Source: Chiloscyllium plagiosum
Lineage: Eukaryota
NCBI RefSeq assembly: GCF_004010195.1
Contig: NC_057719.1
Coordinates: 36,097,852-36,139,263, forward strand
DNA length: 41,412 nucleotides
Direction of reading: 5' to 3'
This document shows, piece by piece, positions 5,650-41,412 of the stretch. The position numbers and the translations under genes were made by a program. The notes below the pieces were generated by a model. The model had not been told where the DNA came from. It saw only the letters and a list, made by a program, of their open reading frames with translations, and searched no databases. Within the stretch, counting starts at the first letter, position 1. Each line of letters starts with the position of its first letter.

Positions 5650-6249
5650 TGCACACAGCCTTAGAATGAATATAAATTACCGTTTTAAACTTTATTTGAC
5701 TCTTGTCAAAAATATCCAGAAGGTTTTATATCCAGAAGGCTTTTTGTTTCTGGTATGATGGATTATTTTAACAAACTGTATTTCAGTGCCATGCAAAAAT
5801 TACAGTTTTTTTAATTGGCTTAGTTGGCACACAGCTTTAATTTAAGAAGCTCAATTTTGTAATTACAGAATCGGAATGTGAACAAAAGGTATACAAAAAT
5901 AACATTTGATGGACAAGGCATTTGATTGTTTTGGGTACTTCCACTGCACAGAATCGTTTTTAGGCTAAAAACTGACGACAAATGTCTGTGTTTCGGAATT
6001 TGTGCGTCATAACAAATATTACCTGCGTAAGGGAATCCCATAAATTTGTTAGTGGGTCATTAATCAATCAGTTATATAAAGAATACAAAGGACAAGGATC
6101 ACCTCAGGGAAACATTGACATTTCTTTGTGGCTCATTTTTATTATGACAAGTGAGCGTCATTATATTTATATCGAATGGAGGAGTGAGGGGAATATGCTC
6201 GACTTGTAGAGTTTGGATAATCATTTTACAATGAACAAAGTTCATCTTT

Positions 6250-8935: not shown

Positions 8936-8984
8936 TCAGCTCATCTGGGGAATTTCTTTTCCTGATATACACACTATACCCTGG

Positions 8985-10736: not shown

Positions 10737-10807
10737 TGAGAAGGCAGTGATGAGCCATCTCCTTGAACTGTAGCAGTTCAAGGAGATGGCTCATCACTGC
10801 CTTCTCA
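10737..10807. repeat. Perfect 34-bp inverted repeat with 3-nt loop inside a LINE 3'-end fragment
   Basis: TGAGAAGGCAGTGATGAGCCATCTCCTTGAACTG-tag-CAGTTCAAGGAGATGGCTCATCACTGCCTTCTCA. Confidence 0.95.
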
Positions 10808-14130: not shown

Positions 14131-14134
14131 AAGG

Positions 14135-14640: not shown

Positions 14641-15029
14641 GGCTCAAATAGAGAACATCAGGTTTTGCCTCCAACACTGGATTTTCTGGGTGCATTACTT
14701 CCATTTGCTCATCAAGACATCCAGTGACCATACAGTGAGATTAACAGTGAGAAGCAGAAAAGGTGTAATTAGTCTGTGACTGATATGCCTGTATTCACAT
14801 AGTTGGCAGCTGCCATGCTTCCTTCATCCTCTGCTAGTTGAGGTAATTTCAGACCTTCACTCCAACCTTGACAAATAGATCCAAGGGATAAGGAGGTCCT
14901 TGAAGAGATGGTTACTCACTGTATTATAGAAGTTTCAGATAGAGGCAATGCCATCTGCTCACTAGGACAATCATTGAACCATCAGATTTCTGATGGTGCC
15001 ACACAGGAAGCACATTCCTAAAGATCAAT

Positions 15030-15475
15030 TAGTCCAGAACCGGAGACACAGTGTAAAGATGCGTGTTTGGTCATTTAGTACTGAGATGAAAAGAAATGTC
15101 TTCATCCAGAGAGTGGTGGGCCTGTGAAAGCCTCTGCCACAGAAAGTGGTTGAGGTCAAATCATTGAATGTTTTCTCTATCCATAGAGTCAGGGGTTACA
15201 AGATTAGGGCAAGGAAGTGAACGTGAAGAATGTTCGATCGTCCATGATCCCACTTAACAGCAGAGTAGGCTCAAAGGGCCAAACAGCCTGCCCTGTTCCT
15301 ATTTCTATAGTTATATGGTCTTAGAAGGAGTTAGATATAGTTCTTATAGTATTGGGCTACAGGGATGAAATGGCATATACAAAAGCTGGGTACCGAGTTG
15401 GATGTTCATCTATGATCATGTTAAAAAGGGCTGAATGGTCTATTCTTGCTCCTATTTTCAATGTTTTTATGTTTA
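15030..15475 (+). mobile_element. Two nested CR1 3' ends
   Basis: aatgtcttcatccagagagtggtg and two tails (ctgccctgttcctatttctatag; attcttgctcctattttcaatg). Confidence 0.6.
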
Positions 15476-17989
15476 CAGTATCTGGCCCACCATGCAAGAA
15501 TCTTGGTCATTGTCATGGTCTGCAGCACTCTCTTGACGTGGCCTTCCTTTCGGTGATGAAACTTTGGAAATATTAAGGGAAAGAGCAAGAACTGAGAGAG
15601 GAACAGGATGTAAAGGTAAGCATAAACAATGTTGACTCCTGTTGTACTGTAAGGTAGCTTTCTTCTTCATCCTCCAGAAAGGAAGTGTCCCTCCTCTCTC
15701 ATGGTCTCAGCATCAGATCCAGGTCAGTAGTGATGAGGTGATGTTTTATCTGAGCCCAAATGTTAGACTTTGGGGCTCATGTGACATCTTCCTTCCCTGG
15801 GATAGAGAAGAGTGCTTGGGTACAAACATCTGACCTCTCTTTCAGCACAACAGTAGTTTCATTGATAGCTGCTATGTGTCAAAATAAGTCCCACGCTTCA
15901 CTTGTCTACATTGCTTATAAGTGGGCAGGAAATCAGTCTCTGATATGAATCCACGGCGTATCCTTTTGTAAATCTGAACTTTAATTATTTTCCTACCCAG
16001 AGAAGTACTTATTAGTACAGAAACAGATGTGACTCCTTTTTCCCTCCTCCATAGTAAAAATTCAGTCTTTTATATCTGCTACCTATTACAAAAAAGCATG
16101 GTTATAGGGTTGAATCTTACATTTCTTTGCCAAAGTGTGAATTGCTTTAGGTTTTTTATCAGGAATCTCGCCATGAGGCTGAGCAAAATTTTGCTCCATC
16201 CCTTACCAACCTACCTACTCATATCGCGTCTCTCTAGTTGATTCTAACCCCATTTTACCGCACACAGTTGTTGGAAAGGCTTGCTACCACCCAGATATCC
16301 TGGAATTGATTGTCATTCCTAAAACTTGCGCCATCTTCAAAATGCCGTTGTCACCCAGACAAGCTCAGCCTATCCCCTGATGCTTGGTATTGATATGAAA
16401 GTACCTATGCAAGTGGGATTGTAGTAGGAATCTTGCTTGTGACTAGAAAGGTGAAATGCTCCAGAAAAAGATGTGCAAGCAGTTTGGAAATGGATGGCAT
16501 AGGTGGCCAGGGCCAACCAAGTTGAATAAAGGCTTGAGTTCCCAGCAGATATTGAGTTGTTATCCAAAACATAATTTACCTCACACTAACTAGCCCTATA
16601 CTGTGGAAAGGGTGTTATGATTGGATGAAGAAGGGTAAATCAGCTCCCACCTTTTAACTCGTTAGGTGGATGCAACAAAAGGTGTTTAATTCTATGCAAC
16701 TACTGTATGTCATTCTTCAGTTAAAATTTAGTACTACTCATTACAAATTACAAATTAAATGACATTTTTCTTGATTGTTTATCTCAAAACTTTCTTTCAA
16801 TCTTGAGATAAACAAAACAAATCTGAAGATAAACAATAAAATGTGAAATCAAACACAGGTACAAAGTTTAACAAGGGGGACACTGTTTAGTACAATAAGA
16901 AAATGAAGAACATAAAGTTTTAAAATTCCGAGCATCCCTGAGTTGTTTTAGTTGAACCCGTGACCCATGACTGTTTAACTGGTAGTTTATATCCTTGGTG
17001 GTGGCAAGGTTTGTGGAATCCTTGAGATCTTGGTGAATGGATGTTCTCCAATTTGTTTAATCGCCAGTTCAGACAATTTTCTTTAATCCATATTGTTTTT
17101 TTGAATTTGTCTCAGCCTGTTGTCAAGTGATTTAGGTCCACATTTGTAAAACCATGAAATTCTTAAGTATTAAAATCAGATGCTGGAAGTTGAAAATTGA
17201 CAGCCCATATTTGCCAGTATTGTGAAATACCACATGACAGCACTTCATAAACTTGTAGATTTAGTGATCCATGCTAGGATCAGGTAGAAATGTTGACCAG
17301 GAGTACTAGAAGCCAATGTGAAAGGCCAACAATGGTGAATTACACCCACCTGATGGTATGGGCCCCATGAAACCAGACTCATAATATCCAGAATCATGCA
17401 ATGATTTTTTTCTCACATTGTTAATGCACTTTGAACAAATGTCTTGCGTGTGTCTGTTATGTTGGCTAAAGTTTTTTTTTGTTCTGGCAATACTTTTGTC
17501 AGCCCCATCCAACTGGCAAAGCCTTAATCCTTGGCATAGCTTTGAATACAGTGAAGATATACGATTGCAGATGATGAGCTGTTTTGGTAAAATTGAGCAG
17601 TGGTTACTTCATTGTATCTCTTCAACTGTGAACTATTGTTTGGAGGAGGGTAAAATCTTATTCTGGCTTTTCTGATGCTACTACAAGAATAAAAAAAATC
17701 TTAAACACTTAATTAATTAATGTCACAGAATTAACTGTTCCTTGCTTTTTAAGGGGATATGATCATTACTTGAATTACTGTACCCAAGAAGTTACTAATT
17801 GATACCATCCCTATTATCTATGATTTATTCTTAAGCATCTCTAGAATGTACTGAACATAGGTACATTGCAACTGCTGCTGTAGGAAAAATGTGATTGATG
17901 CCACTTGTCATATGAGGCATTTCATTAAACAAATGAAGGTGGTTTATCCTGATCTAAATTGAATTAGCTGACCTTGGCCAGGATGTTGG

Positions 17990-19488
17990 CGAAATAACAC
18001 CACAGAGGCCAGTATCCCATCATTAAGCCACTCTTTAGTTACATGTGCATAGTAGTTGACACTGGTCCAGTTTCCTCAGAGCCAACTCTCAGAGTGAACA
18101 GAACCTCTGACACACCTGTTTATATCTGTCAGCCAGGGCTCCCTAATTGGACCAGGTTAACAGACCCAATCAGGAACTCATATTTATGAGGTCCACCTGA
18201 AATTCTGTTCAAGCTTAAGGGTTGGAGTCCAGATTGAAGTTTGTTAAAGACTGTTTCTGAAATTATTGATATAGCTCACTGGTATCGACCTCCGTTTGAA
18301 CTGGGTGACCATTTAACCAGATGTTAATTTTGATTGGTTCTAATTTGGATGTTGCTGGCAATTTAACTGTTCCAAGTGATATGTAGGTGGGCTTTCAAGG
18401 ATTTGTACTCTCCTGGATACTGGTCTATGAGCTTTGATACTGAATTTGGGCCTCATGGGATTCTTTTGTTGTTTCAAATCCACATCCTGACAGCAACTAC
18501 AATAGTTGGCTGATCTGAATCCTGAGGAAAATGTTAACTGTTTGGCTGAGGCTTGGCTTTGTTTTGGAGTTTTGCTGTAGGCTGATCTAGAGTCCCTTTA
18601 TTCTGGATATGTCCTGTGTGAGGCTATGTAATTGCCTTCAGTGAAGTTGGACTGGTGAGGGTACCTACTTCCATCAGAATACCCTGCAACTCACATGCTT
18701 TACTTTCCGCATTTTCCAATGATAAAGCTTGCTGTAGAGCCTGTTTGAAGGTCAGTTGGGATGCAGCTAGTAGGAGATTTTGTATGGTTACATGATTAAT
18801 CCCACATACCGAATGGCCTTTCAGCATCTTATTATGGGTTAAACCAAAGTCATATGCCTCTGCCAGTCATTTTAACCTAGTTAAAAATCCCAATATGGAT
18901 TCCCCTGGTTTTCGAACAGCTGAGTAAGACTGATAGTGTCTCAGAATTAAAGGAGGCTTGGGGTCATAATATTCCTTAACTAAATCCATCAACTCTTGAA
19001 AGGTTTTAGAATCTGGTGCTTCAGGGAAAGTTAGGCTCCTTATAACTGAAAAAGCTGTGGGTCCACAAGCTGTCAGAAGATCACTGATTGCTTTTCATCT
19101 GCTCCAATGTCAAAAAAAAGCATTCTTGCCACATAGTGGACTCAGTCTTTGATGGCAGCATCGAACAAGTCAAACTTCTCAAAAAATGACATGACGCCAG
19201 AAATGCTTGCCACAACTCAAGCTGCTCCGAGCTAATTTCTTCAGAAGTCGTCATACTGAAGTAACTCCAGACAGGCCAGTATCCTGTCACCAAGTCACCC
19301 TCTATTTGCATGTAAAGAGTAAACAAACTGATCCAGCTCCCTCAGAGCCAGCCCTCAGAATGAACAGGATGTCTGACAATCCTGTTCGTATCTGTCAGCT
19401 AGGGTTTCCTGATTTTAACAGGGTAGCCCCAATCAAGGAAGTCATATTCTATGAGGTCCATCTGGTTGACCTCGATACAATCATTACA
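17990..19488 (-). mobile_element. Gypsy LTR retrotransposon, internally deleted (LTR-gag-protease-partial LTR)
   Basis: Direct repeats about 17990-18200 and 19257-19488; gag from ATG at 19192 (MSFFEKFDLFDAA...VCGINHVTIQNLLLA...LTFKQALQQALSLE); protease-like LNGHPVQTEVDT near 18285. Confidence 0.85.
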
Positions 19489-19554
19489 TTGTCCCTTGGT
19501 GGACCTTCTACATGCTGATATAAAAAGCTGTCCTGAAAACATTTCAAGATTTTT

Positions 19555-19862
19555 TTTTCTAAGGCTGGGGGAGTCCAAAACTCAAAGGCATAGCCTTAAG
19601 GCGAGAGGGGAAAGATTTAAAAGGGACCTAAGGGGTAACTTCTTCACACAAAGGTTGGTGCATGTATGAAATAAGCTGCCAGAGGAAATTGTAGAGGTGG
19701 GTACAATGACAACATTTAAAAGACAGGTACCTGAATAGGAAGAGTTTCAAGGGATATGGGCCAAACGCAGGCAAATGGGACTAGTTCAATTTAGAACACC
19801 TGGTTGGCACGGATGGGTTGGACTGAAGTGTCTGTTACCATTCTGTATGACTCTGTGACTCG
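19555..19862 (+). mobile_element. CR1/HER1 LINE 3' end
   Basis: GERFKRDLRGNFFTQRLV; tail tgtatgactctgtgactc. Confidence 0.85.
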
Positions 19863-20389
19863 AATCTCCCACCATTAAACCCTTTTCACAATAACTATCT
19901 CAATTAAAGTTGGGAAAGTTGAAATCTCCTAATATAAATTACCTTATTGTTTTTACACACCTCTGATCCTCTATTGCCTGCAGACTGTTTGGGAACTGAA
20001 AAATACATACCTAGCTGTATAACTGACCCCTTTTTATTCCTAAGCTCTATGCACAAAGCTTCAATTTAAGATATCGTCGCTTCTTACTGCATTAACTGAC
20101 TTCTTCATTAATAATGTACTGTGTGTAGATCTGATACCCCTGAATGTTGCATTGACGGTCCTGCCTCTCCCTCAATCACCTCTCTCTAATGGCGATCACA
20201 TTGCAATTTCAATTATGACTAATGAATAGCCTGGGTGAGTTGGTAGCACCATTATAATTGAGCTGGTTGGATTCTAAAGGACATTGCTACTCGACGGGTC
20301 TGTGGTTGGTGTTAAAGGAAACAGTAAAGAGAAAAAAACAAACTTTATAATGTCCTTATCATTCTGCTGGATGCACATGCATTTGTCCA

Positions 20390-22564
20390 TGACAGTATCG
20401 GCGAGAGTGATCACTGCACAGTCCTTGATGGACATGAAATCGTGCCTTCAAATTGAAAAAACCCTTCGTGAGTTCCACCTTGCTAAATGGAACAGACTTC
20501 AAACAAATCTAGCAACTCAAGACTGGGCATCCATGAGGTGCTGCGGGCCATCAACAATGGCAGAATTATACTCCAATATAACCTGCAACCTAATGGTCTG
20601 GCATATTCCCCCCTTGACCATTATCATCAAGCCAGGAGATCAACCCTGGTTCAATGGACAGTAGGAGGGCATGCTAGGAGCAGCACCAGACTGAGAGGTC
20701 AACCTGGTGAAGTTACAAAACAGGGCAATTTGGATGCCAAGCAGCAAACGATAGACAGAGGGCTAAATGATCCCATAACCAACATGCAGTCCTGCCAAAT
20801 CCAAGCATGACTTGTGACAAACAATTAAATAACACCCTGGAGAATGAGCTCCACAAATATCCCCACCCTCAAAGATGGAAGAGCCTAGCACATCAGTGCA
20901 AAAAACAAGACTGAAGCATTCACAGCAATCCTCAGCTAGAAGTGCTGAGTGGATGATACATTTCAGCTTTCTCCAGTGGTCCCCAGCGTCACCAATACCA
21001 TTCTTCAGCCAATTTGATTCACTCAAGAAACAGATGCACTGGATATTATAAAGGCACTGGGCCCTGACAATATTCCAGCATTAGTACTGAGGACTTATGG
21101 TCTAGAAATCTGCCGCAATTCTAGCCAAGCTGTTTCAGTAAAGCTACAATACTGGCATCAATCCAAGGTTGTGGAAAGTTCCTTAGATAAACCTGTACAG
21201 AAAAGGCAGAACAAATCCATCCCGGCCAACTACCACCCCATCAGTCTACTCTCGATGATCAGTAAAGTGATGGAAAGTGTCAGCAATAGTACTATCAAGC
21301 AATGACCTGCTCAGGCAAGCGTACTCTGGGTTCCACAAGGGCTATTCAGCTCCTGAAAAGATGACAGCCTTTGTTCACACATGGTCGAAAGAGCTGAATT
21401 CCAGAGGTGAGATGAGTGTGACAGTCCTTGGCATCCAGGTGACATTTGACTGAAAGTGGCATCAAGGAGTTCTAGCAAAACAGAGGGCAGCGGGAAACAG
21501 GGAAAAGCTCTCTGCTGGTTAGAGTTAAACCTGGCACGTAACACAACAAAAGATGGTTGTGGTTGTTGGAGGACAGGTATCTCAGCTCCAGGACATCGCT
21601 GCAGCAGTTGCTCAGGGTAGTGCCCTTGGCCAACCATCTTCAGCTGCTTCATTGATGACCCTCCCTCCATCATAAGGTCAGAAGTGGGGATGTTTGTCAA
21701 TGATTGTACAATGTTCAGCATCATTCACAATTCCTCAGATACCAAAACACTCCATGTTCAAATGCAGTAAGATCTGGACAATATCCATGTTTTGGATGGC
21801 AGTGGCAAGCAACATTCATGCCACAAATGCTAGGCAATGGCCATCTCCAATAAGAGAATGGGATGTTCAATGGCATTACCATCACTGAATCCTCCCACTA
21901 TTAACATCCTGGGGGTTAACATTGACAGGAATCTACTAGTCTTATAAATACTATAGCTTCAAGAGCAGGTCAGAGGTTAGGAATCCCAAAGCAAATAACT
22001 CACCACTGGCTTCCCAAAGCCTGTCTGCCTTCAACAAAGTTCAAATCAGGAGCATGATAGAGTACTTCCCACTTACCTGGATGGGTACAGCTCCAACAAC
22101 ATTCAAGAAGCTTGACACTATCCAAGACAAAACAGCCTACTTAATTGGCACCACATCCACAAGCATCTGCTCCCTCCACCACTATTGCTCAGTAGTAGCA
22201 ATGTGTGCTATCTACAAGATGCACTGCAGAAATTCACCAAGTATCCTTAGACAGCATCTTCTAAACCCACAAGCTCTTCCATCTAGATGGACAAGGATAG
22301 CAGATACATGGAAACTACACTACCTGTTAGTTCTTGTCTAAGCCATTCACCGTCCTGACTTGGAAATATGCCACTGTTACTTCACTGTTGCTGTTTCAAA
22401 ATCCTGGAGTTCCCTCCCTAAGGGCATTATGGATTTACCTACAGCATATTGACTATAGCAATTCAAGAAAGCAACTCACCACCATGTTCTCAAGGGCAAT
22501 TAGGAATTGACAATAAATACAGGCCCAGGCAGTGATGCCCACTTATCGTGAATGCTTAAAAAAA
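20390..22564 (+). mobile_element. CR1-group (Zenon-like) LINE, about 2.2 kb, decayed ORF2 with A tail
   Basis: KPGDQPWFN; GPDNIP; NYHPISLLSMISKVME; gctcagggtagtgcccttggc (QGS motif); KKLDTIQDK; A7 end. Confidence 0.85.
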
Positions 22565-23524
22565 GTCATATCAGGTACAGAAAGTAAAACAAAAATAGGG
22601 GAAGAGAAAAATGAAAAAGTTAAAATACACAAAATAAAACACATTAATTATTTTTTCACTAATAACTAAAATTGCAAGGAATGAGACTCCACACTTGTGA
22701 AATTTAATTTCCAGTGCATTAGAGGTTGCTTGGCAATATTAAGACTTAACACACTATTAAAAAGATTATATTTGAATGGACAAGGTCTAACATTTTTAGA
22801 GTTTACTAAGTGTCTATTCTAAAAGATCTATAATTTCATACTATTGAAAGTATTTGAAAGACCAGTTTTTTTGGAGACAGCAATGTAGCACAGAGGAGCA
22901 GTGTATCTCTGACAGCAATTGAATTTCATGTTTATCTGTTCACATGTGGTTGCCAGAAGTTGCTGCCCATTTTTCAATTTAGTAACAGAGAGTGCTGTTA
23001 GCCTCACCACTATTTCTATAGAAAAAACACCCTCTTTTATTTATACTGAAAATAATGTTTGTACAATTGCCATTAAAATATCATTGCCACCACTCATCTT
23101 AAGACACAGCACAAATGAAGTCTCTACATGAGGTATTATTTTAGCACAGCTTATTGTGTACAACTCAATCTTTCCCGTGGCAACATCTAAACTGAATACT
23201 ATAATAACGATTGTAAAAGTAGTTGGTAGCCAAAATCACATATTGCCCAATTTAACAGCTGTCTTTTTATAAACTAGTCATTGTGATTTGGGAGTTTTAA
23301 AGTGAGCTCAAGGCAAGATTTTGTACCAAGCTGACCTGTGCATGTTTGCCAGTTTTATTGTTTTAATCTTCCTGGTAGCAGTTCTGAGAGCAGGGTAACA
23401 GATGATTTTCATATGACTCCATTGTGCGTATATTCAACTGAAAGTTTCCTTTAGAATTGGAGAGCTCTGGTTTACAAAATGCAGTAAATTTCAATCATTA
23501 TTCAGATAATATGTAAACAAAGAC

Positions 23525-23655
23525 AAGCCAAAGAACTACAGGTGCTGGAAATCGGAAACAAAAGTACAAACTTCTGGCAAAACTCAGCAGGCCTGGCACT
23601 ATCTGTGGAGAGAAAGCAGAGTTAATATTTTGTGTCCAGTGACCATTCTGGAGCT
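23525..23655 (-). mobile_element. Short PLE-derived terminal fragment
   Basis: Similar to 39322-39427. Confidence 0.55.
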
Positions 23656-23744
23656 CTAACTAATATGTAATTGTGCTGTTCTGTTCTAAACTACAACTGG
23701 CAGTAGTGAAATCTCATCAACAAAAGTGTGAGTGTGAATTTAGA

Positions 23745-24112
23745 ACAATGGGGCTGGGTGGAATCTTATAGAAATATATAAAATTATGAAGGGAATAGAA
23801 GCAGGAGATTATTTCCATTGGCAGGTGAAACTAGAACTAGGAGATATAGCCTCAAAATAAATTGAGGAAGAACTTCTTCACCCAAAGGGTTGAGAATCTG
23901 TGGGAATCCCTGCCCAATCAAGCAGTTGAGGCTACCTCATTTGATGTTTTTAAGGGAAAAATTTTGAACAGTAAAGTAATTAAGGATTATGGTGAGCTGG
24001 CAGGTCAGTAGAGCTGAGTCTACAAAAAGATTAGCCGTGATCTTATTGAATAGCAGAGCAGGCTCGATGGGCGAGATGGCCTACTCCTGCTCCTATTTCT
24101 TATGTTCTTATG
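23745..24112 (+). mobile_element. CR1 LINE 3' end
   Basis: RKNFFTQRVENLW; tail ggcctactcctgctcctatttcttatgttcttatg. Confidence 0.85.
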
Positions 24113-24299
24113 CAATTTTAGACATATTATATCAATACATTTAGAAGACATGAGAAACATAGTATTCACTATTTTCTACTTTTCATGTACTTAAGCTTAA
24201 TTGTTCTCTTATAATGCTGTTGAAGTTTAATTCTACATCATTATGTCTTTTTGTAAGTCCTCAGACACTTGTTCTGAAACAGGCCAAATGCTCGCTAGT

Positions 24300-24389
24300 C
24301 TAGGAAATGGGAATAAAGGTGGTTAATTTCTGCTCCAATTCATCAACAGTATTGGCTGAAGGCTTGTGGAGAGAAAGGAAGCTATTCGT
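24300..24389 (-). CDS. Candidate terminal coding exon of unidentified host gene (TNSFLSLHKPSANTVDELEQKLTTFIPIS*)
   Basis: AG acceptor at 24390-24391, 105-nt intron to the previous exon, phase 0, open to TAG; the TAG could alternatively be a splice acceptor. Confidence 0.4.
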   Translation of the reverse strand, partial: TNSFLSLHKPSANTVDELEQKLTTFIPIS

Positions 24390-24494
24390 CTATTAATTTA
24401 GAAAACTGCAAAAACTGATCAACAATTTTCAAAATTGCTAAGTCACTGAAGATGCCAATTTTGATGTAGAAATAGTGTGCTGGAACCTACTTAC

Positions 24495-24552
24495 AATGGG
24501 CAATATAGCGGCCGGGCACAGGGAGTTACATAGAAGACCGCTCAAGACACAA
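24495..24552 (-). CDS. Candidate internal exon (CVLSGLLCNSLCPAAILPI)
   Basis: ctcttcacctcag acceptor, GTAAGT donor, only one open frame (phase 2 to 0), CpGs retained. Confidence 0.55.
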
Positions 24553-24616
24553 CTGAGGTGAAGAGTTCCTTAAAGATATTAGTTCCTAAAGGGAGGTCTC
24601 TTAAGAGGTTCAGAAC

Positions 24617-25830
24617 TCATAGAGTCACAGAGATGTACAGCATGGAAACAGACCCTTCGGTCCAACTCGTCCACGCCAACCTAATCCTAACTTAATCTAG
24701 TCCCATTTGCCAGCATTTGGCCCATATCTCTCCAAACCTTTCCTATTCATATACCCATCTGGGTGCCTTTTAAATGCTGTAATTGTAGCAGTCTCCACCA
24801 CTTCCCCTGGCAACTGATTCCATACACACACCACCCTCTGTGTGAAAATATTGCCCTTAGGTCCCTTTTATATCTTTTCCTTCTCACCCCAAACCTATGC
24901 CCTCTAGTTCTGGACTCCCCTATTCCAGGGAAAAAAACAACTATTTATCCTATCCTTGCCCTTCATGATTTTATAAACCTCTATAAGGTCACCTCTCAGC
25001 CTCCAACACTCCAGGGAAAACAGCCCCAGCCTATTCAGCCTCTCCCTATAGCTCAATTCCTTCAACCCTGGCAACATCCTTGTAAATCTTTTCTGAACCC
25101 TTTCAAGTCTCACAACATCCTTCCGATAGGAAGGAGACCAGAATTGCACGCAATGTAACAAAAGTGGCCTAACCAATGTCCTGTAAGGCTGCAACATGAC
25201 CTCCCAACTCATATACTCAGTACTCTGAACAATAAAGGAAAGCATACCCAACGTCTTCTTCACTATCCTATCTACCTGTGTCTCTACTTTCAAGAACTAT
25301 GAACCTACACTCTCAGGTCTCTTTGTTCAGCAATACTTCCCAGGACCTTACTATTAAGTGTATAAGTCCTGCTCTGATTTGCTTTTCCAATGCAGCACTT
25401 CACGTTTATCTAAATTAAACTCCATCCACCATTCCACAGCCCATTGGCCCATCTGATCAAGATCCCGTTACAGTCTTTGCTGTCCACTACACCTCCAATT
25501 TTGGTGTCATCTACAAACTTACTAACTATGCCTCCTATGTTCACATCCAAATCATTAAAATAAGTGATGAAAAGTAGTGGACCTAGCACTGATCCTTGTG
25601 GCACTCCACTGGTCACAGGCCCAGTCTGAAAAGTGACCCTCCACCACCACCCTCTGTCTTCTACATTTGAGCCAGTTCTACATCCAAATGGCTAGTTCTC
25701 TCTGTATTCCATGAGATCAAACCTTGTTAACCAGTCTCCACGTGGAACCTTGTTGAATGCCTTACTGAAGTCCATATAGATCAGGTCTACCGCTCTGCCC
25801 TCATCAATCCTCTTTGTTACTTCTTCAATT
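24617..25830 (-). mobile_element. HER1/CR1 LINE, RT to 3' end
   Basis: SGVPQGSVLGPLLF...KFVDDTKIGG; LERVQKRFTRMLPG...RLRGDLIEVYKIM. Confidence 0.92.
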
Positions 25831-26189
25831 CTTTGGAATGTCTTCCATTGCTGGAGCAAGACATATTCAGATGTTCAAGATTGAATATGTAGAGTTTTTC
25901 TTAAAAACCTGCCAGACATTTTTCAATTCTAATATAGGACTGATTGCCATAAACACCCCATGTCCATGGACATTGGCATCCAACATATCCAGCCCTCTAA
26001 CAAACCTTTGGCACATCACTAATTCCCTTACAGGTCAGTTCTGCACTTCAATCCTGCACCACCAGAGCCACAGCAATGTGGTTGACTCTCAACTACACTT
26101 AGAATGGTCGAGCATGTCTCAAAAACAATGAAACCAGATGGACCACCTGGCATTGACCTGGAAAAGACAATTGCAGAAACAGTTCTGTC

Positions 26190-27632
26190 AACTGTGCTCT
26201 TCCAGTTCAGTTGCAACACTTGTATCTATCTAAGTATGTGAAAAGTTCATCAAGTATGACTTGTATACAAAAAGCAGGACAAATCCAACCCGGCCAATTA
26301 CCGTCTCATCAGTCTGCTCTCAATTGTAAGTAAAGTGATGGAAAATTTCATCAACAGTGCAATCAAGCAGCACCTGCTCAGTGGCGCCCAGTTTGGGTTC
26401 TGCCAGGGCCACTCAGCTCTGGACCTCATTACAACCTTGGCTCAAACATGGACAAAACAGCTGAATTCCAGAGGTGAGGTGAGAGTAACAACCCTTTACA
26501 TTCAACCGAGTGTGGAATCAAGGAGCCCGAGCAAAACTGAAATCAATGATGATCAAGGTGAAAACTCTTTGCTGGATAGAGTCATATCTGACACATAGGA
26601 AGATGGTTATGTGTTTTACAGGTCAGTCACCTTAGCTCAAGGACATCTCTGCAAGAATTCCTCAGACCCAACCATTTTTAGCTGCTTCATTAATGACCTT
26701 CTTTCCATCGTAAGGTTAGAAGTGGGGATGTTCGCTGATGATTGCCCAATGTTCAGAACCATTTGCAACTCTTAAGAAATTAAAGCAGACCATATTCAAA
26801 TACAACAAGATCTGGACAATATCCAGACTTGGGCTGACAGGTGGCAAGTAACATTGCCACATAAATGCCAGGCAATGATCATCTCTGATAAGAGACAGGG
26901 TAAAAACAATGACTGCAGATGCTGGAAACCAGATTCTGGATTAGTGGTGTTGGAAGGGCACGGCAGTTCAGGCAGCATCTGAGGAGCAGTAAAATCGACG
27001 TTTCGGGCAAAAGCCCTTCATCAGGGCTTTTGCCCGAAACATCGATTTTCCTGCTCCTCGGATGCTGCCTGAACTGCTGTGCTCTTCCAGCACCACTAAT
27101 CCAGAATCTGATAAGAGACAGTTTAATCACCGCCCCATGACATCCAATTGTGTTACCATCACTGAATCCCCAACAATCAACATTCTAGGGATTATCATTG
27201 ACCAGAAACTTAACTGGATTCTTCATATAAATATAATGGCTATAACAACAGATCAGAGGCTAGGAATACTGCAGTTAGTAACTCACCTCCTGACTCCCCA
27301 AAAGCCTGTTCAATTGTCTCAAAGGCGCAAGTCAGAGGTGTGATGGAATACTCCCCACTTGCCTGGATGGGTGCAGCTCCAACAACACTCAAGAAGCTTG
27401 ACATCATCCAGGACAAAGCAGCTTGCTTGATTGATGTCATATCCGCAAACATCCACTCCCTCCACCAGTGATGCTCAGTATCAGCAATATATACAATCTG
27501 CAAGATGCACTGCCAAAATTCACCAAAAATCCTTCACGAGCACCTTCCATACCTATGGTCACTTCCTTTTGGAAGGACAAGGGCTACAGATAAGTGGGAA
27601 AACTACCAGCTGCAAGTTCCCTTCCATGCCAC
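26190..27632 (+). mobile_element. CR1-group (Zenon-like) LINE RT fragment, split by a PLE insert and truncated at the ERV LTR
   Basis: NYRLISLLSIVSKVME; QFGFCQGHSALDL; GMFADD. Confidence 0.85.
26899..27106. mobile_element. 208-bp foldback PLE insert with 15-bp TSD
   Basis: TSD tctgataagagacag at 26884-26898 and 27107-27121; arms about 26930-27016 and 27023-27110; 31-bp unpaired tail. Confidence 0.9.
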
Positions 27633-28240
27633 TTAACCAAATCAGGGAAAACATAATGGGACTTGATTCAATCAAGGATGGATTCTTAGTAGATCCTTAC
27701 AGGACAAAGAACAGTGGTTTTGTATTGCTAAATGGGCAAGTGATTATCGAGGAAATGTGGGACCTTGAAAATGGTTGAAACACATTGGCGAACAGCAGGG
27801 GGTAAAACAACATTACTTTCACATGATGTGAAGGGTACTTCACTGGGCAATTGCGGTTACTGGTTGAAACGCTTAAATGAACAGCAGGGAGTAACTGCAG
27901 AGATCAATTTCAAATGCTATTGCTGCAGAAATTGACATTGCTATAGAAATTCATGTGTCTATAGACAAAACAAATACAGTTACACCCAAAACCACAGAAA
28001 CCACAAGTGTATAAGAATGCGAGCCGTGATCAGACAGTTAGCAGCTGCCTTATATCATCTATAGAGCTGTCTTATACCATCTATGCAGGTGCCTTATATC
28101 ATCTATGCAGCTGTCATGTCTTTGCAGTTGTCCTGTCCTATCCATGTATCTGCCACAGTTCTGCAATAAAGACTTAAAGAAGACATTGTGTAGTTCCCAT
28201 GCCTGGTCATTCCTATTATTGGAAAAACGAGTACCCAGCA
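27633..28240 (+). repeat. ERV 5' LTR (first ~50 bp missing)
   Basis: Aligns to 33041-33602; TATAAG 28010; AATAAA 28165; ends gtacccagCA. Confidence 0.9.
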
Positions 28241-28249
28241 ATTCTATCT

Positions 28250-28262
28250 TAGTCGGCAGTAT
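28250..28262 (+). promoter_or_regulatory. Degenerate primer-binding site, tRNA-Ser type
   Basis: TAGTCGGCAGtAT versus TGGCGTAGTCGGCAGGAT, the complement of the tRNA-Ser 3' end. Confidence 0.7.
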
Positions 28263-28302
28263 CTCAAGAGGATAAAGGGGGAGAAGACCACTTCACGCCT
28301 AG

Positions 28303-28310
28303 AGGTAAGG
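28303..28310 (+). promoter_or_regulatory. Probable ERV major splice donor
   Basis: AG|GTAAGG between PBS and gag ATG. Confidence 0.55.
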
Positions 28311-29147
28311 GCTCCTCTTACATTCACTCAGATAGAAATGACAGTCTGAAAATTTCCACTGTCTGACGTGCTCAATGATTTTGATTTGCATCTAAAGGAA
28401 TACAAACATCTGTGGCTGCAAAGGACAGGAAAGGGAGCCTTTGTCTACAACTCTTAGAGGGTGTATTTTGGTTCAAATCTAGGCAGAAAGCCAGGCATAA
28501 TCTCTAAATTAGAACTCCCTATTATAGTCAAAGATGGAAAAACACCATCTGACATTTTAGTAGATGAAGTCTCACAGAAATTAAAAGAATATATTGAGCA
28601 ACAATTTAATCAATTTAATACCTTAACTAAAGCCATCAAAAGTATCGAACCTCCACGAGATATTGGTCCCTGGATGATATAAAACTAGTTTGGATAAAAT
28701 GTACTCCTCTAAAAGATAAAGATCCAATGGTCACTGCACGTAATAATTTAAAAAATTGAATCATGAGAGAAAAATTCACAACCTAAAAGAACAATTAAAA
28801 ACAGTTTGTGCAGAATTGAAAACTACGAGTAGCGCGCTCCATGCCCTGAGGCAAGTTTGGCAACCTCTAGCAGCTCAGAAGATAGTGAGTGTCCCCCTGT
28901 TGCCATGAGACCAGTATGAATGAAATGGCAGAAAGGGAGGAAAATAAAAGTTGAAGAACAAGGGAGCACAGTTGCTAGGTAAGAATATACCCAATGGGCA
29001 ATCCATAAGACCCCTGATCCACAATTAGTTCAGAGATGGTCCAAAGAAGGGAGGTATGAGGACATGGAATGAGTTAGAAAAACTCAAGGACCTATATACC
29101 TGACATCACATGGACAGATTTCAAATCCTGTCTGTCATAGAATCCCT

Positions 29148-30442
29148 GCTGAAAATATGTTGCTGGAAAAGCGCAGCAGGTCAGGCAGCATCCAAGGAGC
29201 AGGAGAATCGACGTTTCAGGCATGAGCCCTTCTTCAGGAATGAGGAAAGTTTGTCCAGCAGGCTAAGATAAAAGGTAGGGAGGAGGGACTTGGGGGAGGG
29301 GTGTTGGAAATGCGATAGGTGGAAGGAGGTTAAGTGANNNNNNNNNNNNNNNNNNNNNNNNNNNNNNNNNNNNNNNNNNNNNNNNNNNNNNNNNNNNNNN
29401 NNNNNNNNNNNNNNNNNNNNNNNNNNNNNNNNNNNNNNNNNNNNNNNNNNNNNNNNNNNNNNNNNNNNNNNNNNNNNNNNNNNNNNNNNNNNNNNNNNNN
29501 NNNNNNNNNNNNNNNNNNNNNNNNNNNNNNNNNNNNNNNNNNNNNNNNNNNNNNNNNNNNNNNNNNNNNNNNNNNNNNNNNNNNNNNNNNNNNNNNNNNN
29601 NNNNNNNNNNNNNNNNNNNNNNNNNNNNNNNNNNNNNNNNNNNNNNNNNNNNNNNNNNNNNNNNNNNNNNNNNNNNNNNNNNNNNNNNNNNNNNNNNNNN
29701 NNNNNNNNNNNNNNNNNNNNNNNNNNNNNNNNNNNNNNNNNNNNNNNNNNNNNNNNNNNNNNNNNNNNNNNNNNNNNNNNNNNNNNNNNNNNNNNNNNNN
29801 NNNNNNNNNNNNNNNNNNNNNNNNNNNNNNNNNNNNNNNNNNNNNNNNNNNNNNNNNNNNNNNNNNNNNNNNNNNNNNNNNNNNNNNNNNNNNNNNNNNN
29901 NNNNNNNNNNNNNNNNNNNNNNNNNNNNNNNNNNNNNNNNNNNNNNNNNNNNNNNNNNNNNNNNNNNNNNNNNNNNNNNNNNNNNNNNNNNNNNNNNNNN
30001 NNNNNNNNNNNNNNNNNNNNNNNNNNNNNNNNNNNNNNNNNNNNNNNNNNNNNNNNNNNNNNNNNNNNNNNNNNNNNNNNNNNNNNNNNNNNNNNNNNNN
30101 NNNNNNNNNNNNNNNNNNNNNNNNNNNNNNNNNNNNNNNNNNNNNNNNNNNNNNNNNNNNNNNNNNNNNNNNNNNNNNNNNNNNNNNNNNNNNNNNNNNN
30201 NNNNNNNNNNNNNNNNNNNNNNNNNNNNNTCCACCTATCGCATTTCCAACGCCCCTCCCCCAAGTCCCTCTTCCCTACCTTTTATCTTAGCCTGCTTGGC
30301 ACACTATCCTCATTCCTGAAGAAGGGCTCATGCCCGAAACGTCGATTCTCCTGCTCCTTGGATGCTGCCTGACCTGCTGCGCTTTTCCAGCAACACATTT
30401 TCAGCTCTGACCTCCAGCATCTGCAGTCCTCACTTTCTCCTT
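29148..30442. mobile_element. Penelope-like element with inverted pLTRs, centre in a gap
   Basis: Inverted arms 29148-29323 and 30230-30405, 37-bp tail, TSD tgtcat(a/c)gaatccct at 29133-29147 and 30443-30457; hammerheads 29205-29237(-) and 30316-30348(+). Confidence 0.85.
29338..30229. other. Assembly gap (892 N)
   Basis: N run. Confidence 1.
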
Positions 30443-30762
30443 TGTCATCGAATCCCTACATTGTGAAAACAGACTATTTGGCACAACAAGTCCACACCAA
30501 CCCTCTGAATAGTAACCCACACAGACCCATTCCCCAACCCTATTACTCTGCATTTATCCCTGACTAATGCTCATAACCTACACATCCCTGAACACTATGG
30601 GAAATTTAGCATATCAATTCACCTAACTTGCATATCTTTGGACTATGGGAGGAAATCCACACAGGCACAGGGAGAATGTGCAAATTCCACACCGTCATCC
30701 GAGGCTGGAATTGAACCCAGGTCCCTGGCACTGTGAGGTAGCAGAGCAGCCATTGTGCTGCC
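30443..30762 (-). mobile_element. HE1-type SINE inserted in ERV gag
   Basis: Homologous to 6250-6590; box B GGTTCAATTCC on the minus strand. Confidence 0.85.
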
Positions 30763-31417
30763 ATAGTGGATGGCAATGCAGGACAAAAATTGTATTCCAG
30801 AGTTAAGGACCGTATCAACAGGATTTAAAGGATAGCTGGTGGGCAATCTAAAGTTGGCTTCATGAATATGGTCCATCCAGAACCAATTGGGGTAAAATAA
30901 TGGCATGCCAACAGAAGGGAAATGAAGATGTTAGAAATTTTGTAGGGAGCTGTGGTGAAGTGTGGATTGAGCATTCTAGACCAGCTCCTAATGGCAATCC
31001 AGAGGAATTAGAAGGTCAAATTTGGACCCATTAAAAAGCAGGCTTGAAGCCCAAACTGGCAAAAATGTTAAAAATACAATGCCATGATTTGGATAAAAAA
31101 ATTCATGCACTCTTGGCAATATAATAGAAGAAGCCAATTGCTAGGAGAGATATATGGAATCAAAACTCAGAACAATGCAGACTGTAAGGGCTACTAACAC
31201 TGAAAAAACACCCTTGGAAGTGCTACAATTGTGGAAAGGAGGGCCATTGTGCTAAAAGTTGTAGGTTAAAAACAAAAGTCTGGGTGAAAAACAAGCTCCC
31301 AAGTCAGATAAAATAAGCATCTGTATGGCATAAACTGCCTTTAAAGGAGCACCTTCCTCTATTGGAGCAACTCCAGGACTATACAGAATCTCAGGTGAAA
31401 GAGCTTATCAATCTCTC

Positions 31418-32735
31418 AAAAAACGAACACAGCCCACTTCCAATATTTTAGTTCCTTTTTCAGCAGTGTTAGAAAACCAACTGGATGGCTGCTATGTTGT
31501 GATGTGGTGGGCGAGAAGGAAATTGTCTTTTAGACATTGGTGCAGAGCTAACATGTTTACCTATAAGTGATTTAACTTTGGAGGGAGAGAAAGAAACACA
31601 CCTGGAGTGGGAAGAAAGGAACTAAAAATTGTAAAGGCCAAGATATTCCCAACAAGGCCAGGACCACACAAGATTGTTAAATCTGGCTGGGTCAGTCTCG
31701 TACAACAAGCCTTATGGATGTATTAACTCAAATACATTTGTCATTACACTTCGAGAACGGCCAATACGGCCCCTTAAACAAGAAGAATGGCGGGATAATC
31801 AAATGTGGACAAAGGATAAAAGTGACTGTGGCCTGTTAAAGATGACCCTGGTTATTTTCACTGGAATTGCTCTGCCATGAACTTAACAGTACCCCATCAG
31901 TTCTGCCTCTATTGCTGGTATTCTACTCCTAATCAAACGATTAGAGCATAAAGGTGTACTGATGAAAGTCCACAGTTCACCTAATAGCCTGGTATGGCCA
32001 GTTAAAAAGCCTGATGGAACCTGACATCTGACAGTAGACTACAGGCGAGTGAACCAGTGAATGAATTAAAAAGCACCCTTGGTTGCAGACCCCTCTAGCA
32101 TTTTTAAATCTCTGTCATTAAAACACAGATTCTTTTCAGTGATTGACATGACCAATGGATTTTGGTCGGTTCACCTGGCCCAAGAGGTACAACCATGGTT
32201 TGTGTTTTTACACCATCCAACAACAACAGTATACCTGGATGTGTTTACCACAGGCTTTTACAGTAGCCCTACTGTATTCCATATGGCTTTGCAAAATCAT
32301 TTGCAGAACCGTGTCTGATGGCATCAACGGTAATTCAACACATGGATGATATTCTAATAGCATCCCGAACAACATAGGGAGGATTTGTGTGTCCTCCTTG
32401 GCCATTTATGCTCCCATGGCCATAAGGCAAAACTTAAGAGTGCACAAATTGCCCAAGAAGAGGCGTTATACTTGGGATAAAAGATTTCAGCAGGGAAATG
32501 TGAAATAATTCTGGATCTGACAAGTGCTGTTAGTTATGCCTCCCAACAGATTGCAGTGGCATGAGGTGATCCTCCCGAAAGTGGACACGACTTAATTCCA
32601 GCACCTGGGTCTACATCAAAAACATACACAAAGAACCGCTGGGTGTCAAGTGGGAAGGCCCGTGTCAAGTTCTCCTGACAACACAATCAGCCATGAATGT
32701 GCAAGAAAAGATAGCTTGGATACATGCATCAAAAG
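31418..32735 (+). pseudogene. pol: ERV pro-pol: protease, RT, large deletion, integrase C-terminus
   Basis: LLDIGAELTC (31527-31556); WTKDKSDCGLL; QYPI; NSLVWPVKKPDGT; VDYRRVN; FSVIDMTNGFWSV; QYTWMCLPQ; IQHMDDILIAS; GHKAK; IN end WVYIK...KWEGPCQVLLTTQSA...WIHAS. Confidence 0.9.
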
Positions 32736-32756
32736 AGCTAACACTCCTGCTCCACC

Positions 32757-32961
32757 ATGAAGAACCTTACTCTGTTTGTGGGACTTGCAATTGTTTCAAT
32801 CTCTCTGGTAATGTGTACTCCATTGCAAAATGTGAGTCGAATGTTGACACATTCCTGTATTCATCTTATACATACGTAAGGAAAAATAATGTTTTCTCAC
32901 TTTATATGCTTGTGTTCAATATTTCAAATGTTATCTGCTCCGTTTACGTAATGATTCTTAG
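32757..32961 (+). pseudogene. env: ERV env remnant: signal peptide joined to a TM-like remnant
   Basis: ccaccATG then MKNLTLFVGLAIVSISLVMCTP; with a 1-nt shift MLTHPVFILYI...CFLTLYACVQYFKCYLLRLRNDS*; lies between IN and PPT. Confidence 0.55.
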
Positions 32962-32977
32962 TAAGTTATTAAGAATC

Positions 32978-32991
32978 GAAAAAGGGTGGAG
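32978..32991 (+). promoter_or_regulatory. Polypurine tract
   Basis: gaaaaagggtggag immediately before the 3' LTR. Confidence 0.8.
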
Positions 32992-33602
32992 TTATGGGAT
33001 TCAGTGGAAGCCCATCGAACATGAAAGGGTTAAGTTGGATTTAATTATACCAGGAAAACATATTGAGACTTGATTAGATCAGGGATGAGTTCTTGGCAGA
33101 TACTTATAGGGCAATAACTGTGGCTTTGCATTGCTAAATGGGACGTGATTATAGAGGGAATGGTTGAAGCACATCGGTGAACAGCAGAGGGTAACCACAA
33201 TATTAGTTTCACTGCAATATTACCTCCAGTGAAGGTACCTCCAGGGGATTAACTGCAGAGATCAGTTTGAAATGCCATTGCTTTTGAAATTAACATGTCT
33301 CTAGTCAGAACAAATTCAATTACACCCAAAACCACAGAAACCACAAGTTTATAAGAACGTGAGCTGTGATCAGACAGGTAACAGCTGCCTTATAACATTT
33401 TATGAGGCTATCTTATACCATCTATGCAGCTGCCTTATACCATCTATGAAGCTGCCTTATACATCTATGAAGCTGTCATGTCTTTGCAGTTGTCTTGTAC
33501 CACCCATGTAACCACAACACTTCTGCAATAAAGATTTAAAGAAGACATTGTGTAATTCCTGTGCCTGGTTTTTCCTATTATTGGGAAAACGAGTACCCAA
33601 CA
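32992..33602 (+). repeat. ERV 3' LTR (about 611 bp)
   Basis: TATAAG 33350; AATAAA 33527; ends gtacccaaCA; start uncertain by a few bases (no intact TG). Confidence 0.9.
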
Positions 33603-33835
33603 ATGTGTTTGTGATGACATTTTGCTGGAGTTGTCTGAAATGGCGGAGAATGATCCTCTGCATGTGGAGGCTGGTTGGATAAAAACTGAGGACAGAGGGA
33701 ACCCAATCACGCTGTTGTGAGTGATGGGAAGGGGCAAGGGCAGATGCACAGATGGGAGGTCAGATGCGGTTGAGGGCCTTGTCAACCATAATGTGTGGGA
33801 AACCACGGTCGTGGACGAAGCAAGCCATGTCTCGA
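33603..33835 (-). mobile_element. Penelope-like ORF fragment
   Basis: VPSVLSFYPTSLHMQRIILRHFRQLQ, resembling the PLE RT-endonuclease linker. Confidence 0.65.
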
Positions 33836-36107
33836 TCCCCTAATAAGAATTAATTAAGCTTGAGTTATCCATGTTATTTATTAAAAAGAAATAGTTTTTT
33901 TATCTCTAAGTTTCTCTTATGCAGGCGAGATCTTAATGTGGCCAACTGTCCAGGATTTTCCTGGAATTTCTAGACGTCAACTTTGAGGACACTACTGTTT
34001 GCAACTGTTAAGAAAGACCACAGGGACATTGAAAAGATTGACTTTTGTTTGTCATTTTCTTTTTCAAGTGCAAAAATATTGGAAACTGAAGAAAAAAGAC
34101 TGTTTGGCTGGCAATCAAATTTCATGCAATTAGTTGGCGAATCTTTTTGCTTCTCAACTGGCATTGCATTGCAGTGATGAGTGTTTGGTCAACTACAGGG
34201 TGTAGCATGGTTAAAACTGTGATAGTATAAATTTCAGAACGCTAATACCTGTTCATAGATTGAAAGAAGCGGCAATAACTCTGCCTTGAATAAACTATTA
34301 AAAGACAATGACAAACTTACACAGGAATTGAAAGCATTTAGTCTGTCTGAGAGAAGGAGTCAAGGCTACATGAACAAAACTGTTTTGACATCTACTTGAT
34401 AACTGGCAGCTTTATGGCACAAGGATAACTGATTGCCTTGCAGAAGAATTTAAGGAGTTAATCACAGAAAACTGGTGTTTTCAAACAGACAGCTAACAGC
34501 GAGAGGAGTTACTTCTGAGAAGCAAACAAGCTGCAGACTCAAGGACTCCAAAAGGGGAATCAACATTTTGGATGAAAACATCTGAAGATCATCAATAATA
34601 TTACACCATAGACCCAAAGGCTGAAAAGTTGTATGAGAATCCAACACCAGAATGTTTCATTAGCAGAACTTTGAAGAACAACACTGTACAAGGATCCAAC
34701 CCTGGACATCAGAGCCAGGCATTGTTGGTTGGGTTTGTAGCTAAATTCCACGATTAATCACTTATAGCCATGTTGAGTTGTGAGATTTGCTTACTTGAGG
34801 GGTCTTATTTTGGATGTTATGTGCAATAAAGTTTAAATCATTATTTCAGTACTTGATTATCTATGAGTTTTCTGAATAAGTAGCTGAATTAAAGGTAACT
34901 TGTGGTGACATAGCCACAACAAAACCATGTGAAGTAACCTTCAGAAATAAGTTCAATTAAAATTGGCACCCCTATGAAACCCTAAAGGTTCTGGTAGTTT
35001 CATATAAATGTAGGAGTTGCAGCACAAACAGAACTGACTCTTTTATTGCACCTATACAAATTTGCAAACCTTTGTGTGGACGTATAACTCTATGCTTCAT
35101 TTTATCATTCTTCTCACAACTATTTTGTTATTTTATGTTTATCTTTCCAACTACTTATTCAAATAGTTTAAATGATATGACCATCCATCATGACGTATAA
35201 TGTCTTTTGAAGTTGTGTGCCAACCTTGCTTGTTTTCTTATTTATAAACAACAAAGTAGAGAGATGGGTAAATGTTCTTCCCTATCTTCCCTTCCCTCGT
35301 CATCTGTCTAAACTTCAAGCAGGAAATCTCAGGCCTTTGACTGCTGTTGAATTGTTGCTGCCAGAGAAGCCCTGCAATGTTGAAAATCATCCTGTGCCCC
35401 TCATTAAGAAATTATTGTCACCCTCCAGTTCAGCCTGGCTGCAGAACTGCTGACCCTTTCATTTGCAGGGATCCATGGAAGGATGTAGCAGTAGCTCTTT
35501 ACAGCTGTCCCTGTGCTAGATCAAAGTCAGTAAGATGAAATGAAAGGGCATGGGAGAGGTGCAAGTGTCCTTTTCACAACTAGAAGGTGAGAAGGAATCA
35601 GGCCTTTTGTTTGCTGTGGGTGCAGGTATCAGTATGTTTGCTGAGAAACTTCAGGAAATTTCAGGGTAATAGGTGATGACTTGATATAATTAGTCTTTGT
35701 CCCTGTTTCTTTGCTAATCTTGAACGCCTGGCACTGGGCAAGAGAGAATATGAGTTGTGTTTGTGAGAATGTGAGCTCTGTGTGTATGGCTTCTCCTCTG
35801 TCTGGTTGTCTGCCGACACTACACTCTGTCCCTGAGAGGTTGAAGCAACTACAGTGAGGTGAGGTTTCCTCATTTGCCTCTTGCCTTGCCTTTGATGCTG
35901 TGCACCAATGGTTACAGCCATGAAGTGCAAATCTGTGCACATCCCCAGTACAGTATAAACTGGGTGTGTTGGACTTTGTCTCCATGGCAGTTTTCAACCC
36001 TTTCATTGAGACAGCCAGGCACATGAATCCCAAGGCAATGCTGACAATATTAGGATCATAGAATCCTTAAATGTTGATGGATTCCTCTGTCAGTTGATCC
36101 AGTTTAC

Positions 36108-36148
36108 CGACTGCCTCTGCGAAGCAAGCCTGCTGCTCCTGTGCCTAC
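36108..36148 (-). CDS. Candidate internal exon (VGTGAAGLLRRGSR)
   Basis: tatacAG acceptor after an 85-nt intron; GTAAAC donor; phase 0 to 2 matches both neighbours. Confidence 0.55.
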
Positions 36149-36233
36149 CTGTATAATTTGGCAAAGTCATTAATGACCAAGACCAATGGACAAGTTCAAA
36201 ACTGGAAAATTCAGCCCAAAACCATTCACTTAC

Positions 36234-36310
36234 GAAGCTTTCACTGTTGTGAAATTCATCAGCCTTAAAATTATCTTCCAAATATTTACAAACCTCATTG
36301 CAAGGTAATT
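36234..36310 (-). CDS. Candidate internal exon (ELPCNEVCKYLEDNFKADEFHNSESF)
   Basis: gttttcattgacttAG acceptor, GTAAGT donor, phase 1 to 0. Confidence 0.6.
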
Positions 36311-36630
36311 CTAAGTCAATGAAAACATGATTTCCTTTACGAACTGAGGTTTATACAGATGTCTTATTTGTATAGTTAATAAAATAAGGGAGTATTAATG
36401 TGTCAGAGCATTATTCATACCTAGAATGTGTCACTAGCTTAAAATTTAGAACTCATTAGACCTAACCTCTCTCACACTCCACTTTAAATGAACAATAACT
36501 TGTTTTCATTCAGTTAAAGTTTTCACTTTCCTTGTGAGGAGACACTTATGATTACATGAACATTGTACCCACTGGAGGCCTCCAAGTTTGCAATGTTAAG
36601 GGGAAACATTTAATTAGTGGCTGCACATAC

Positions 36631-36649
36631 CTGAATGCCCCATACCCAT
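36631..36649 (-). CDS. 3' part of a candidate exon emerging from the gap (MGMGHS)
   Basis: CAG|GTATGT donor; phase 1 fits the next exon; 320-nt intron. Confidence 0.45.
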
Positions 36650-37149
36650 NNNNNNNNNNNNNNNNNNNNNNNNNNNNNNNNNNNNNNNNNNNNNNNNNNN
36701 NNNNNNNNNNNNNNNNNNNNNNNNNNNNNNNNNNNNNNNNNNNNNNNNNNNNNNNNNNNNNNNNNNNNNNNNNNNNNNNNNNNNNNNNNNNNNNNNNNNN
36801 NNNNNNNNNNNNNNNNNNNNNNNNNNNNNNNNNNNNNNNNNNNNNNNNNNNNNNNNNNNNNNNNNNNNNNNNNNNNNNNNNNNNNNNNNNNNNNNNNNNN
36901 NNNNNNNNNNNNNNNNNNNNNNNNNNNNNNNNNNNNNNNNNNNNNNNNNNNNNNNNNNNNNNNNNNNNNNNNNNNNNNNNNNNNNNNNNNNNNNNNNNNN
37001 NNNNNNNNNNNNNNNNNNNNNNNNNNNNNNNNNNNNNNNNNNNNNNNNNNNNNNNNNNNNNNNNNNNNNNNNNNNNNNNNNNNNNNNNNNNNNNNNNNNN
37101 NNNNNNNNNNNNNNNNNNNNNNNNNNNNNNNNNNNNNNNNNNNNNNNNN
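36650..37149. other. Assembly gap (500 N)
   Basis: N run. Confidence 1.
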
Positions 37150-41097: not shown

Positions 41098-41375
41098 TTC
41101 AAATGTTGATTTAATTGTGACATAAAACATAACTACAGTAAACGATGGACTGTCCTTCTTCCTGAGCTGTCATAGTACAACTTCTATACTACAGCGGGAC
41201 TTTGGAGAACTAGGAAGAAGGCTGAAAAGCAGGACGTTCAAATGTTGATTTAATTGTGACATAAAACATAACTACAGTAAACGATGGACTGTCCTTCTTC
41301 CTGAGCTGTCATAGTACAACTTCTATACTACAGCGGGACTTTGGAGAACTAGGAAGAAGGCTGAAAAGCAGGACG
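41098..41375. repeat. Perfect 139-bp tandem duplication
   Basis: 41098-41236 identical to 41237-41375. Confidence 0.95.
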
Positions 41376-41412
41376 TCCAAGGTGGTTATCTCCGGTTTGC
41401 TTCCAGTTCCTC

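Follow-up and report, generated by a model that had tools for sequence, protein, structure and literature searches.

Five exon-like segments on the minus strand of a repeat-rich stretch of Chiloscyllium plagiosum DNA are probably chance pseudo-exons

The stretch of Chiloscyllium plagiosum DNA studied here (NCBI RefSeq assembly GCF_004010195.1, contig NC_057719.1, positions 36,097,852 to 36,139,263 of the forward strand) is 41,412 nucleotides long, and this whole stretch is referred to below as the window. Its GC content is about 40%, it is depleted of CpG, it contains 1892 Ns, and most of it consists of repeats resembling long interspersed nuclear elements (LINEs), short interspersed nuclear elements (SINEs) and long terminal repeat (LTR) elements. 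A hand-drawn mask of these repeats left about 15.3 kb of non-repeat DNA in 14 islands. In a preliminary description made from the sequence, five small segments from such islands had been joined on the minus strand into a hidden gene with small exons, whose protein was not recognised and which was thought to be possibly lineage-restricted. The chain is present, equal chains occur in shuffled DNA, and no homologue was found. The segments, together with the shortest of the claimed introns, are the following.

36631..36649, minus strand: partial claimed exon 1, truncated at an N gap; carries the best donor of the set (CAG/GTATGT)
36234..36310, minus strand: claimed exon 2, 77 nt, 31% GC, no CpG, two open frames
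36149..36233, minus strand: claimed 85-nt intron, without stops in the exon-2 frame
36108..36148, minus strand: claimed exon 3, 41 nt, 63% GC, 2 CpG, two open frames
24495..24552, minus strand: claimed exon 4, 58 nt, 52% GC, 3 CpG, GTAAGT donor
24300..24389, minus strand: claimed last exon, weak acceptor (score -2.0)

All five segments were found at the positions given for them. The four donors are all GT and the four acceptors all AG, the introns were recomputed at the same sizes of 320, 85, 11555 and 105 nt, and the join yields, without stops, the 94-residue peptide that had been proposed. CpGs, said to be kept in two of the exons, number 0, 0, 2, 3, and 1 in exons 1-5. Exon 1 directly adjoins a gap of 500 Ns (36650-37149), and its ATG is therefore only the first readable codon at the gap edge, while the acceptor of this exon is hidden within the gap. 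Exon 4, which encodes a hydrophobic peptide with a mean hydropathy of 1.8, is the most exon-like of the five segments. The last exon had been called the least certain one, and it is indeed the weakest part: the acceptor of 24300-24389 scores -2.0 versus 4.3 for the acceptor at 6022 and 7.4 for that at 11791, both of which were left unused. No AATAAA polyadenylation signal occurs within 900 nt downstream of this exon, and an ATTAAA lies at 24231.

The splice sites were scored with approximate vertebrate matrices. On this scale, the claimed acceptors fall within the top 7.5, 10.8, 15.9, and 29.6% of the 2775 minus-strand AGs, and the claimed donors within the top 0.5, 11.3, 11.4, and 4.8% of the 2138 minus-strand GTs. 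Sites of this quality number about 150 acceptors and about 30 donors per strand in the non-repeat DNA. The chain was compared with shuffled DNA in which dinucleotides were preserved. The site scores of exons 2-4 served as the cut-off, below which the exon 5 acceptor (-2.0) falls, and stops at the junctions were ignored, which slightly favoured the shuffles. When all the approximately 15.3 kb of non-repeat DNA was shuffled, 74 of 100 sequences contained a phase-compatible chain of five exons or more. When only the two islands used by the chain were shuffled, at least three internal exons, the real value being three, could be chained in 71 of 300 cases. Short introns that combine a GTRAGT donor with an AG-free zone were found twice in the real sequence, compared to a mean of 2.8 in the shuffled ones, and at least one was present in 95% of 300 shuffles. 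The site quality and the length of the claimed chain are not above chance. What had been observed thus stands as far as the segments, the splice letters and the open frame are concerned, but an excess over chance does not emerge from the shuffles.

The two strands gave different numbers of candidate exons. On the minus strand there are 22, compared to 13.8 ± 5.0 in shuffled DNA, where 7 of 100 sequences attain that number; on the plus strand there are 5, compared to 15.8. This imbalance of 22 to 5 favours another explanation, namely that an unannotated, lineage- or tissue-restricted gene on the minus strand, either coding or non-coding, really uses some of the segments as exons. We consider such a gene rather unlikely. 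In addition to the splice sites and the chain length, which do not surpass chance, the minus strand argues against it by showing no excess of T over A or of G over C (z -1.9 and -0.8, respectively).

The search for homologues of the proposed gene was negative throughout, with the exons queried singly and exons 1 and 3, in the frame of the preliminary description, run against Pfam only; a relative recognisable only over the whole joined peptide may therefore have been missed. In word searches of 5.8 billion proteins, no candidate scored: there were 6 for the exon-2 frame (proteins of 152-2000 aa), 1 for the exon-4 frame (77-2000 aa) and 35 (71-2000 aa) for an alignment whose four rows were exon 5, the second exon-2 frame and two frames at 6022. 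No match to the exon-2 frame was obtained at E ≤ 0.001 by phmmer against 1.84 billion representatives. Of the 329 open reading frames (ORFs) listed, 298 non-repeat ones were run together against Pfam, none matching at E ≤ 0.02, and some of the remainder were covered by another Pfam search; twelve read-through frames gave nothing below E 0.08, and the exon frames produced sub-threshold noise. The best Atlas score of the exon-4 frame, 0.79 with a recognition of 1168, was likewise noise. Metagenome scans yielded 106 pattern matches, of which none was confirmed, and a 22-mer from exon 4 had no match. The genuine Pfam matches in the window are transposon and retroviral remnants only, and an Rfam scan gave no match at the gathering score. 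A near-identical annotated shark orthologue should share many five-residue words with the queries. The empty results thus make an annotated gene less likely, and the lack of a homologue in protein searches of the exon frames also speaks against an unannotated one. Plus-strand readings of the five segments were rejected as well, having no notable Pfam match and no good acceptor-donor pair. Two likenesses were discarded as unsupported in Pfam and PDB: exon 3 had been likened to a Rossmann glycine motif, and exon 4 plus the 6022 segment to the final helix of receptors with seven helices.

We conclude, with a probability of roughly 0.6, that the five segments are chance pseudo-exons that likely have no protein product. 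Ordinary non-repeat DNA lying between LINE, SINE and retroviral insertions would have acquired the AG and GT ends and the open frame by chance. At 37% GC, splice-like sites are frequent and segments of 40-90 nt are often free of stops in at least one frame, so that a reader free in the choice of ends and frames can chain several of them. The spliceosome would presumably ignore these sites, and no messenger RNA (mRNA) would carry the join. According to PMC1935003, pseudoexons are estimated to be about tenfold more numerous than real exons. On balance the findings speak against a coding gene, without being decisive.

The five-exon model is not unique, as mutually exclusive stop-free models share the same DNA. 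Positions 36149-36310 can be read as a single exon of 162 nt that takes in the 85-nt 'intron'. The donor at its end, with a score of 5.7, is the best in the two clusters; the claimed donors at 36234 and 36108 both score 0.1. The phase of this exon does not fit exon 4. Exon 4 itself, with an end of phase 0, fits a different end of the chain.

5960..6022, minus strand: alternative last exon, acceptor 4.3, 80-nt AG-free zone, CTAAC branch-like site, 3 CpG

This segment has 20 codons followed by TAA, with an AATAAA at 5696, and the hydropathy of its first 8 residues is 1.2. If the gene is real, site quality and hydropathy make an end at 6022 likelier than one at 24300, and if it is coding, exon 4 would more likely join 6022 than 24389. 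From its hydropathy, the product of the former join would end in a hydrophobic stretch, basic residues and a stop, similar to membrane proteins that are anchored at the C-terminus. Given the weak exon 5 and the other joins that fit, the five-exon product in its exact form is less probable than a gene that uses some of these segments. Taken by itself, the CpG-retaining minus-strand interval 5690-6022, with its good acceptor, CTAAC and downstream AATAAA, is possibly the terminal exon of some transcript.

A further reading of the same DNA is provided by an open frame that runs through the claimed 85-nt intron.

36093..36350, minus strand: open frame of 86 codons covering exon 2, the 85-nt intron and, in another frame, exon 3

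When this frame was searched against PDB by phmmer, all 38 matches at E ≤ 10 were crystallins, with a best E of 0.0026. Query residues 18-52 were aligned to chain residues 105-139 and query residues 42-84 to 114-156, and some alignments joined both pieces (query 19-69 to 106-141). In Atlas, the ten best family-bearing matches belonged to one family or clan, with crystallin clusters at the top at 0.88. The frame could accordingly be a strongly diverged or decayed domain exon of the beta/gamma-crystallin type, in which case the 85-nt 'intron' would be coding, an explanation that we regard as very unlikely. In its favour is also the presence in catshark of 41 gamma-crystallin genes and a putative pseudogene, as reported in PMC11979771. 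On the other hand, the best single-stretch E in PDB is only 0.12-0.16, Pfam PF00030 is not listed for the frame or its parts, and phmmer against the 1.84 billion representatives gave no match. The Atlas score lies below the 0.9 line of the tool and, with 155 shared features and a recognition of 2209, is a lead only. Gamma-crystallins have two domain exons, with each domain in one exon (PMC2929430), and in catshark 40 of the genes are clustered within 1 Mb (PMC11979771); a motif scan of the readable window, in which 1892 bases are N, found no second crystallin-like exon. The match also requires a 15-residue insertion relative to gamma-crystallin, and a neutral relic so diverged would not be expected to retain 86 open codons. 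A single-sequence AlphaFold model of the frame was mostly helical and of low confidence (predicted local distance difference test score, pLDDT, 41) and uninformative on the fold. The crystallin resemblance is a probable chance match. Since it crosses the claimed intron and uses exon 3 in another frame, it cannot support the peptide of the five-exon chain.

Returning to the chance pseudo-exons, several points weigh against them. The CpG count over the five exons is 6 versus 1.8 expected (p approximately 0.01); windows with at least 3 CpG make up 5 of 487, and exon 4 and the 6022 segment provide 3 of these. Exons 3 and 4 are GC-rich, at 63% and 52% versus 37%. The amino-acid composition scores 0.9 bits, midway between the +9.2 expected for coding and the -8.7 expected for background sequence (standard deviation 4.9). 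The donor of exon 1 is in the top 0.5% of the minus-strand GTs, and the crystallin resemblance contrasts with five of five other ORFs of the window that have no PDB match at E ≤ 10. Moreover, a blank in the word searches is by their own standard weak evidence; they skip proteins longer than 2000 aa and were run without a positive control such as a known shark exon. Distant relatives are easily missed with queries as short as 19-29 residues, and the splice matrices are approximate. CpG is the only signal above background, and the exons had been selected partly by CpG. Apart from exon 4 and the 6022 segment, two further CpG clusters are present in non-repeat DNA, at 16221-16280 and 2861-2920.

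Several properties speak for the unannotated gene. CpG and GC are retained in exons 3 and 4 and at 6022, the CpGs of exons 3-4 being its best support. The donors at 36234 and 24495 are GTAAGT and that at 36631 is strong, AG-free zones of 53 nt (36148) and 80 nt (6022) precede acceptors, an AATAAA is present at 5696, and the peptides of exon 4 and the start of the 6022 segment are hydrophobic (1.8 and 1.2, respectively). About half of the large claimed intron of 11.5 kb is taken up by a retrovirus-like insert.

27646..33604, plus strand: broken element resembling an endogenous retrovirus

The element has a pair of terminal repeats (27646-28242 and 33053-33604) that are about 85% identical (447 of 528 positions) and contain a 22-nt tandem array. 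In the element, a reverse-transcriptase fragment at 32070-32315 (Pfam, E 2.7e-4) was detected, and an integrase C-terminal domain of the murine leukaemia virus (MLV) type at 32573-33070 (Pfam, E 9e-8, above the cut-off). The element is broken up by SINEs and one N gap. It lies antisense to the proposed gene, the orientation usually tolerated for retroviral inserts within introns, which also speaks for the gene.

Sequencing reads and comparison DNA were examined for 5651-25600, with exons 1-3 outside this range. Separately, no RNA run was listed as containing 36090-36649, a blank that counts neither for nor against transcription, and this interval was represented in 5 sequencing runs of unrecorded kind from 2 studies, with shares of 0.39-0.64. 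The output for 5651-25600 was dominated by repeats, and among the 15 of 2945 joints listed there, none was at 24495/24389 or 24495/6022. In the poly(A) single-cell run (X6), 95% of the 2324 placed reads continue into unlike sequence and hence derive from other repeat copies; the depth of this run was 0 to 0.03 over 8976-12300 and 0 over 15626-16955. Repeats share the bins of exons 4-5 and of the 6022 segment, which makes the depth there unreadable. At position 5888, inside the predicted 3' end of the unannotated gene, the depth was zero in both X6 and the contig set X8 (about 2% of one sample), a weak point against that gene given the small sample. The DNA of a second organism (organism B, X5) was represented by 8 listed pieces with 1.6-4.0% differing letters, and none of these 8 covers a claimed exon. 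Among them, the lowest divergence was found for 10937-12676 (27 of 1723 letters). This piece includes 11749-11791 (43 nt), the minus-strand candidate exon with the best scores (7.0-7.4 for its acceptor and 3.9 for its donor).

Elsewhere in the window, three CCAAT/ATTGG boxes lie near one another at 10100-10200, in a bin where the depth of X5 and X8 is slightly raised; they could belong to a low-copy repeat or to an element resembling a promoter. At the end of the window, 41098-41380 is a tandem duplication with a period of 139, two copies and 99% matches, which may have arisen recently or may stem from the assembly.

Besides the chance pseudo-exons, the unannotated gene and the crystallin-derived exon, all other readings together deserve hardly any credence. 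A more far-reaching proposal would be an orphan gene of cartilaginous fish, with no relative found among billions of proteins, that spans at least 30 kb across the retroviral insertion, ends at 6022 and encodes a small membrane-anchored protein, possibly with a highly diverged crystallin-like domain; this we find quite unlikely. If a gene were nevertheless present, its protein would be unannotated and without known relatives, in a lineage where orphan genes have received little study; a crystallin-like domain of divergent sequence, lying outside known genes, would, if true, bear on the spread of that superfamily. If the segments are pseudo-exons, the value of the case is one of calibration only: five hand-spliced GT-AG segments with about 95 open codons are to be expected in about 15 kb of non-repeat shark DNA.

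Two known systems can be compared with what is seen here. The frame at 36093-36350 resembles the C-terminal domain of gamma-crystallin (PF00030; PDB 1a5d, 2jdf) in a weak co-linear similarity to chain residues 105-157. It differs from that domain in having no Pfam match, no partner exon in the window and a 15-residue insertion; no Greek-key fold is seen in its model, which is of too low confidence to be informative. Pseudoexons, intronic or intergenic segments with splice-like sites on either side (PMC1935003), are defined by their exclusion from mRNA, which for the present segments is only presumed. The likeness to the pseudoexons is in the moderate AG and GT ends, in the exon-like length and in a number as found in shuffled DNA.

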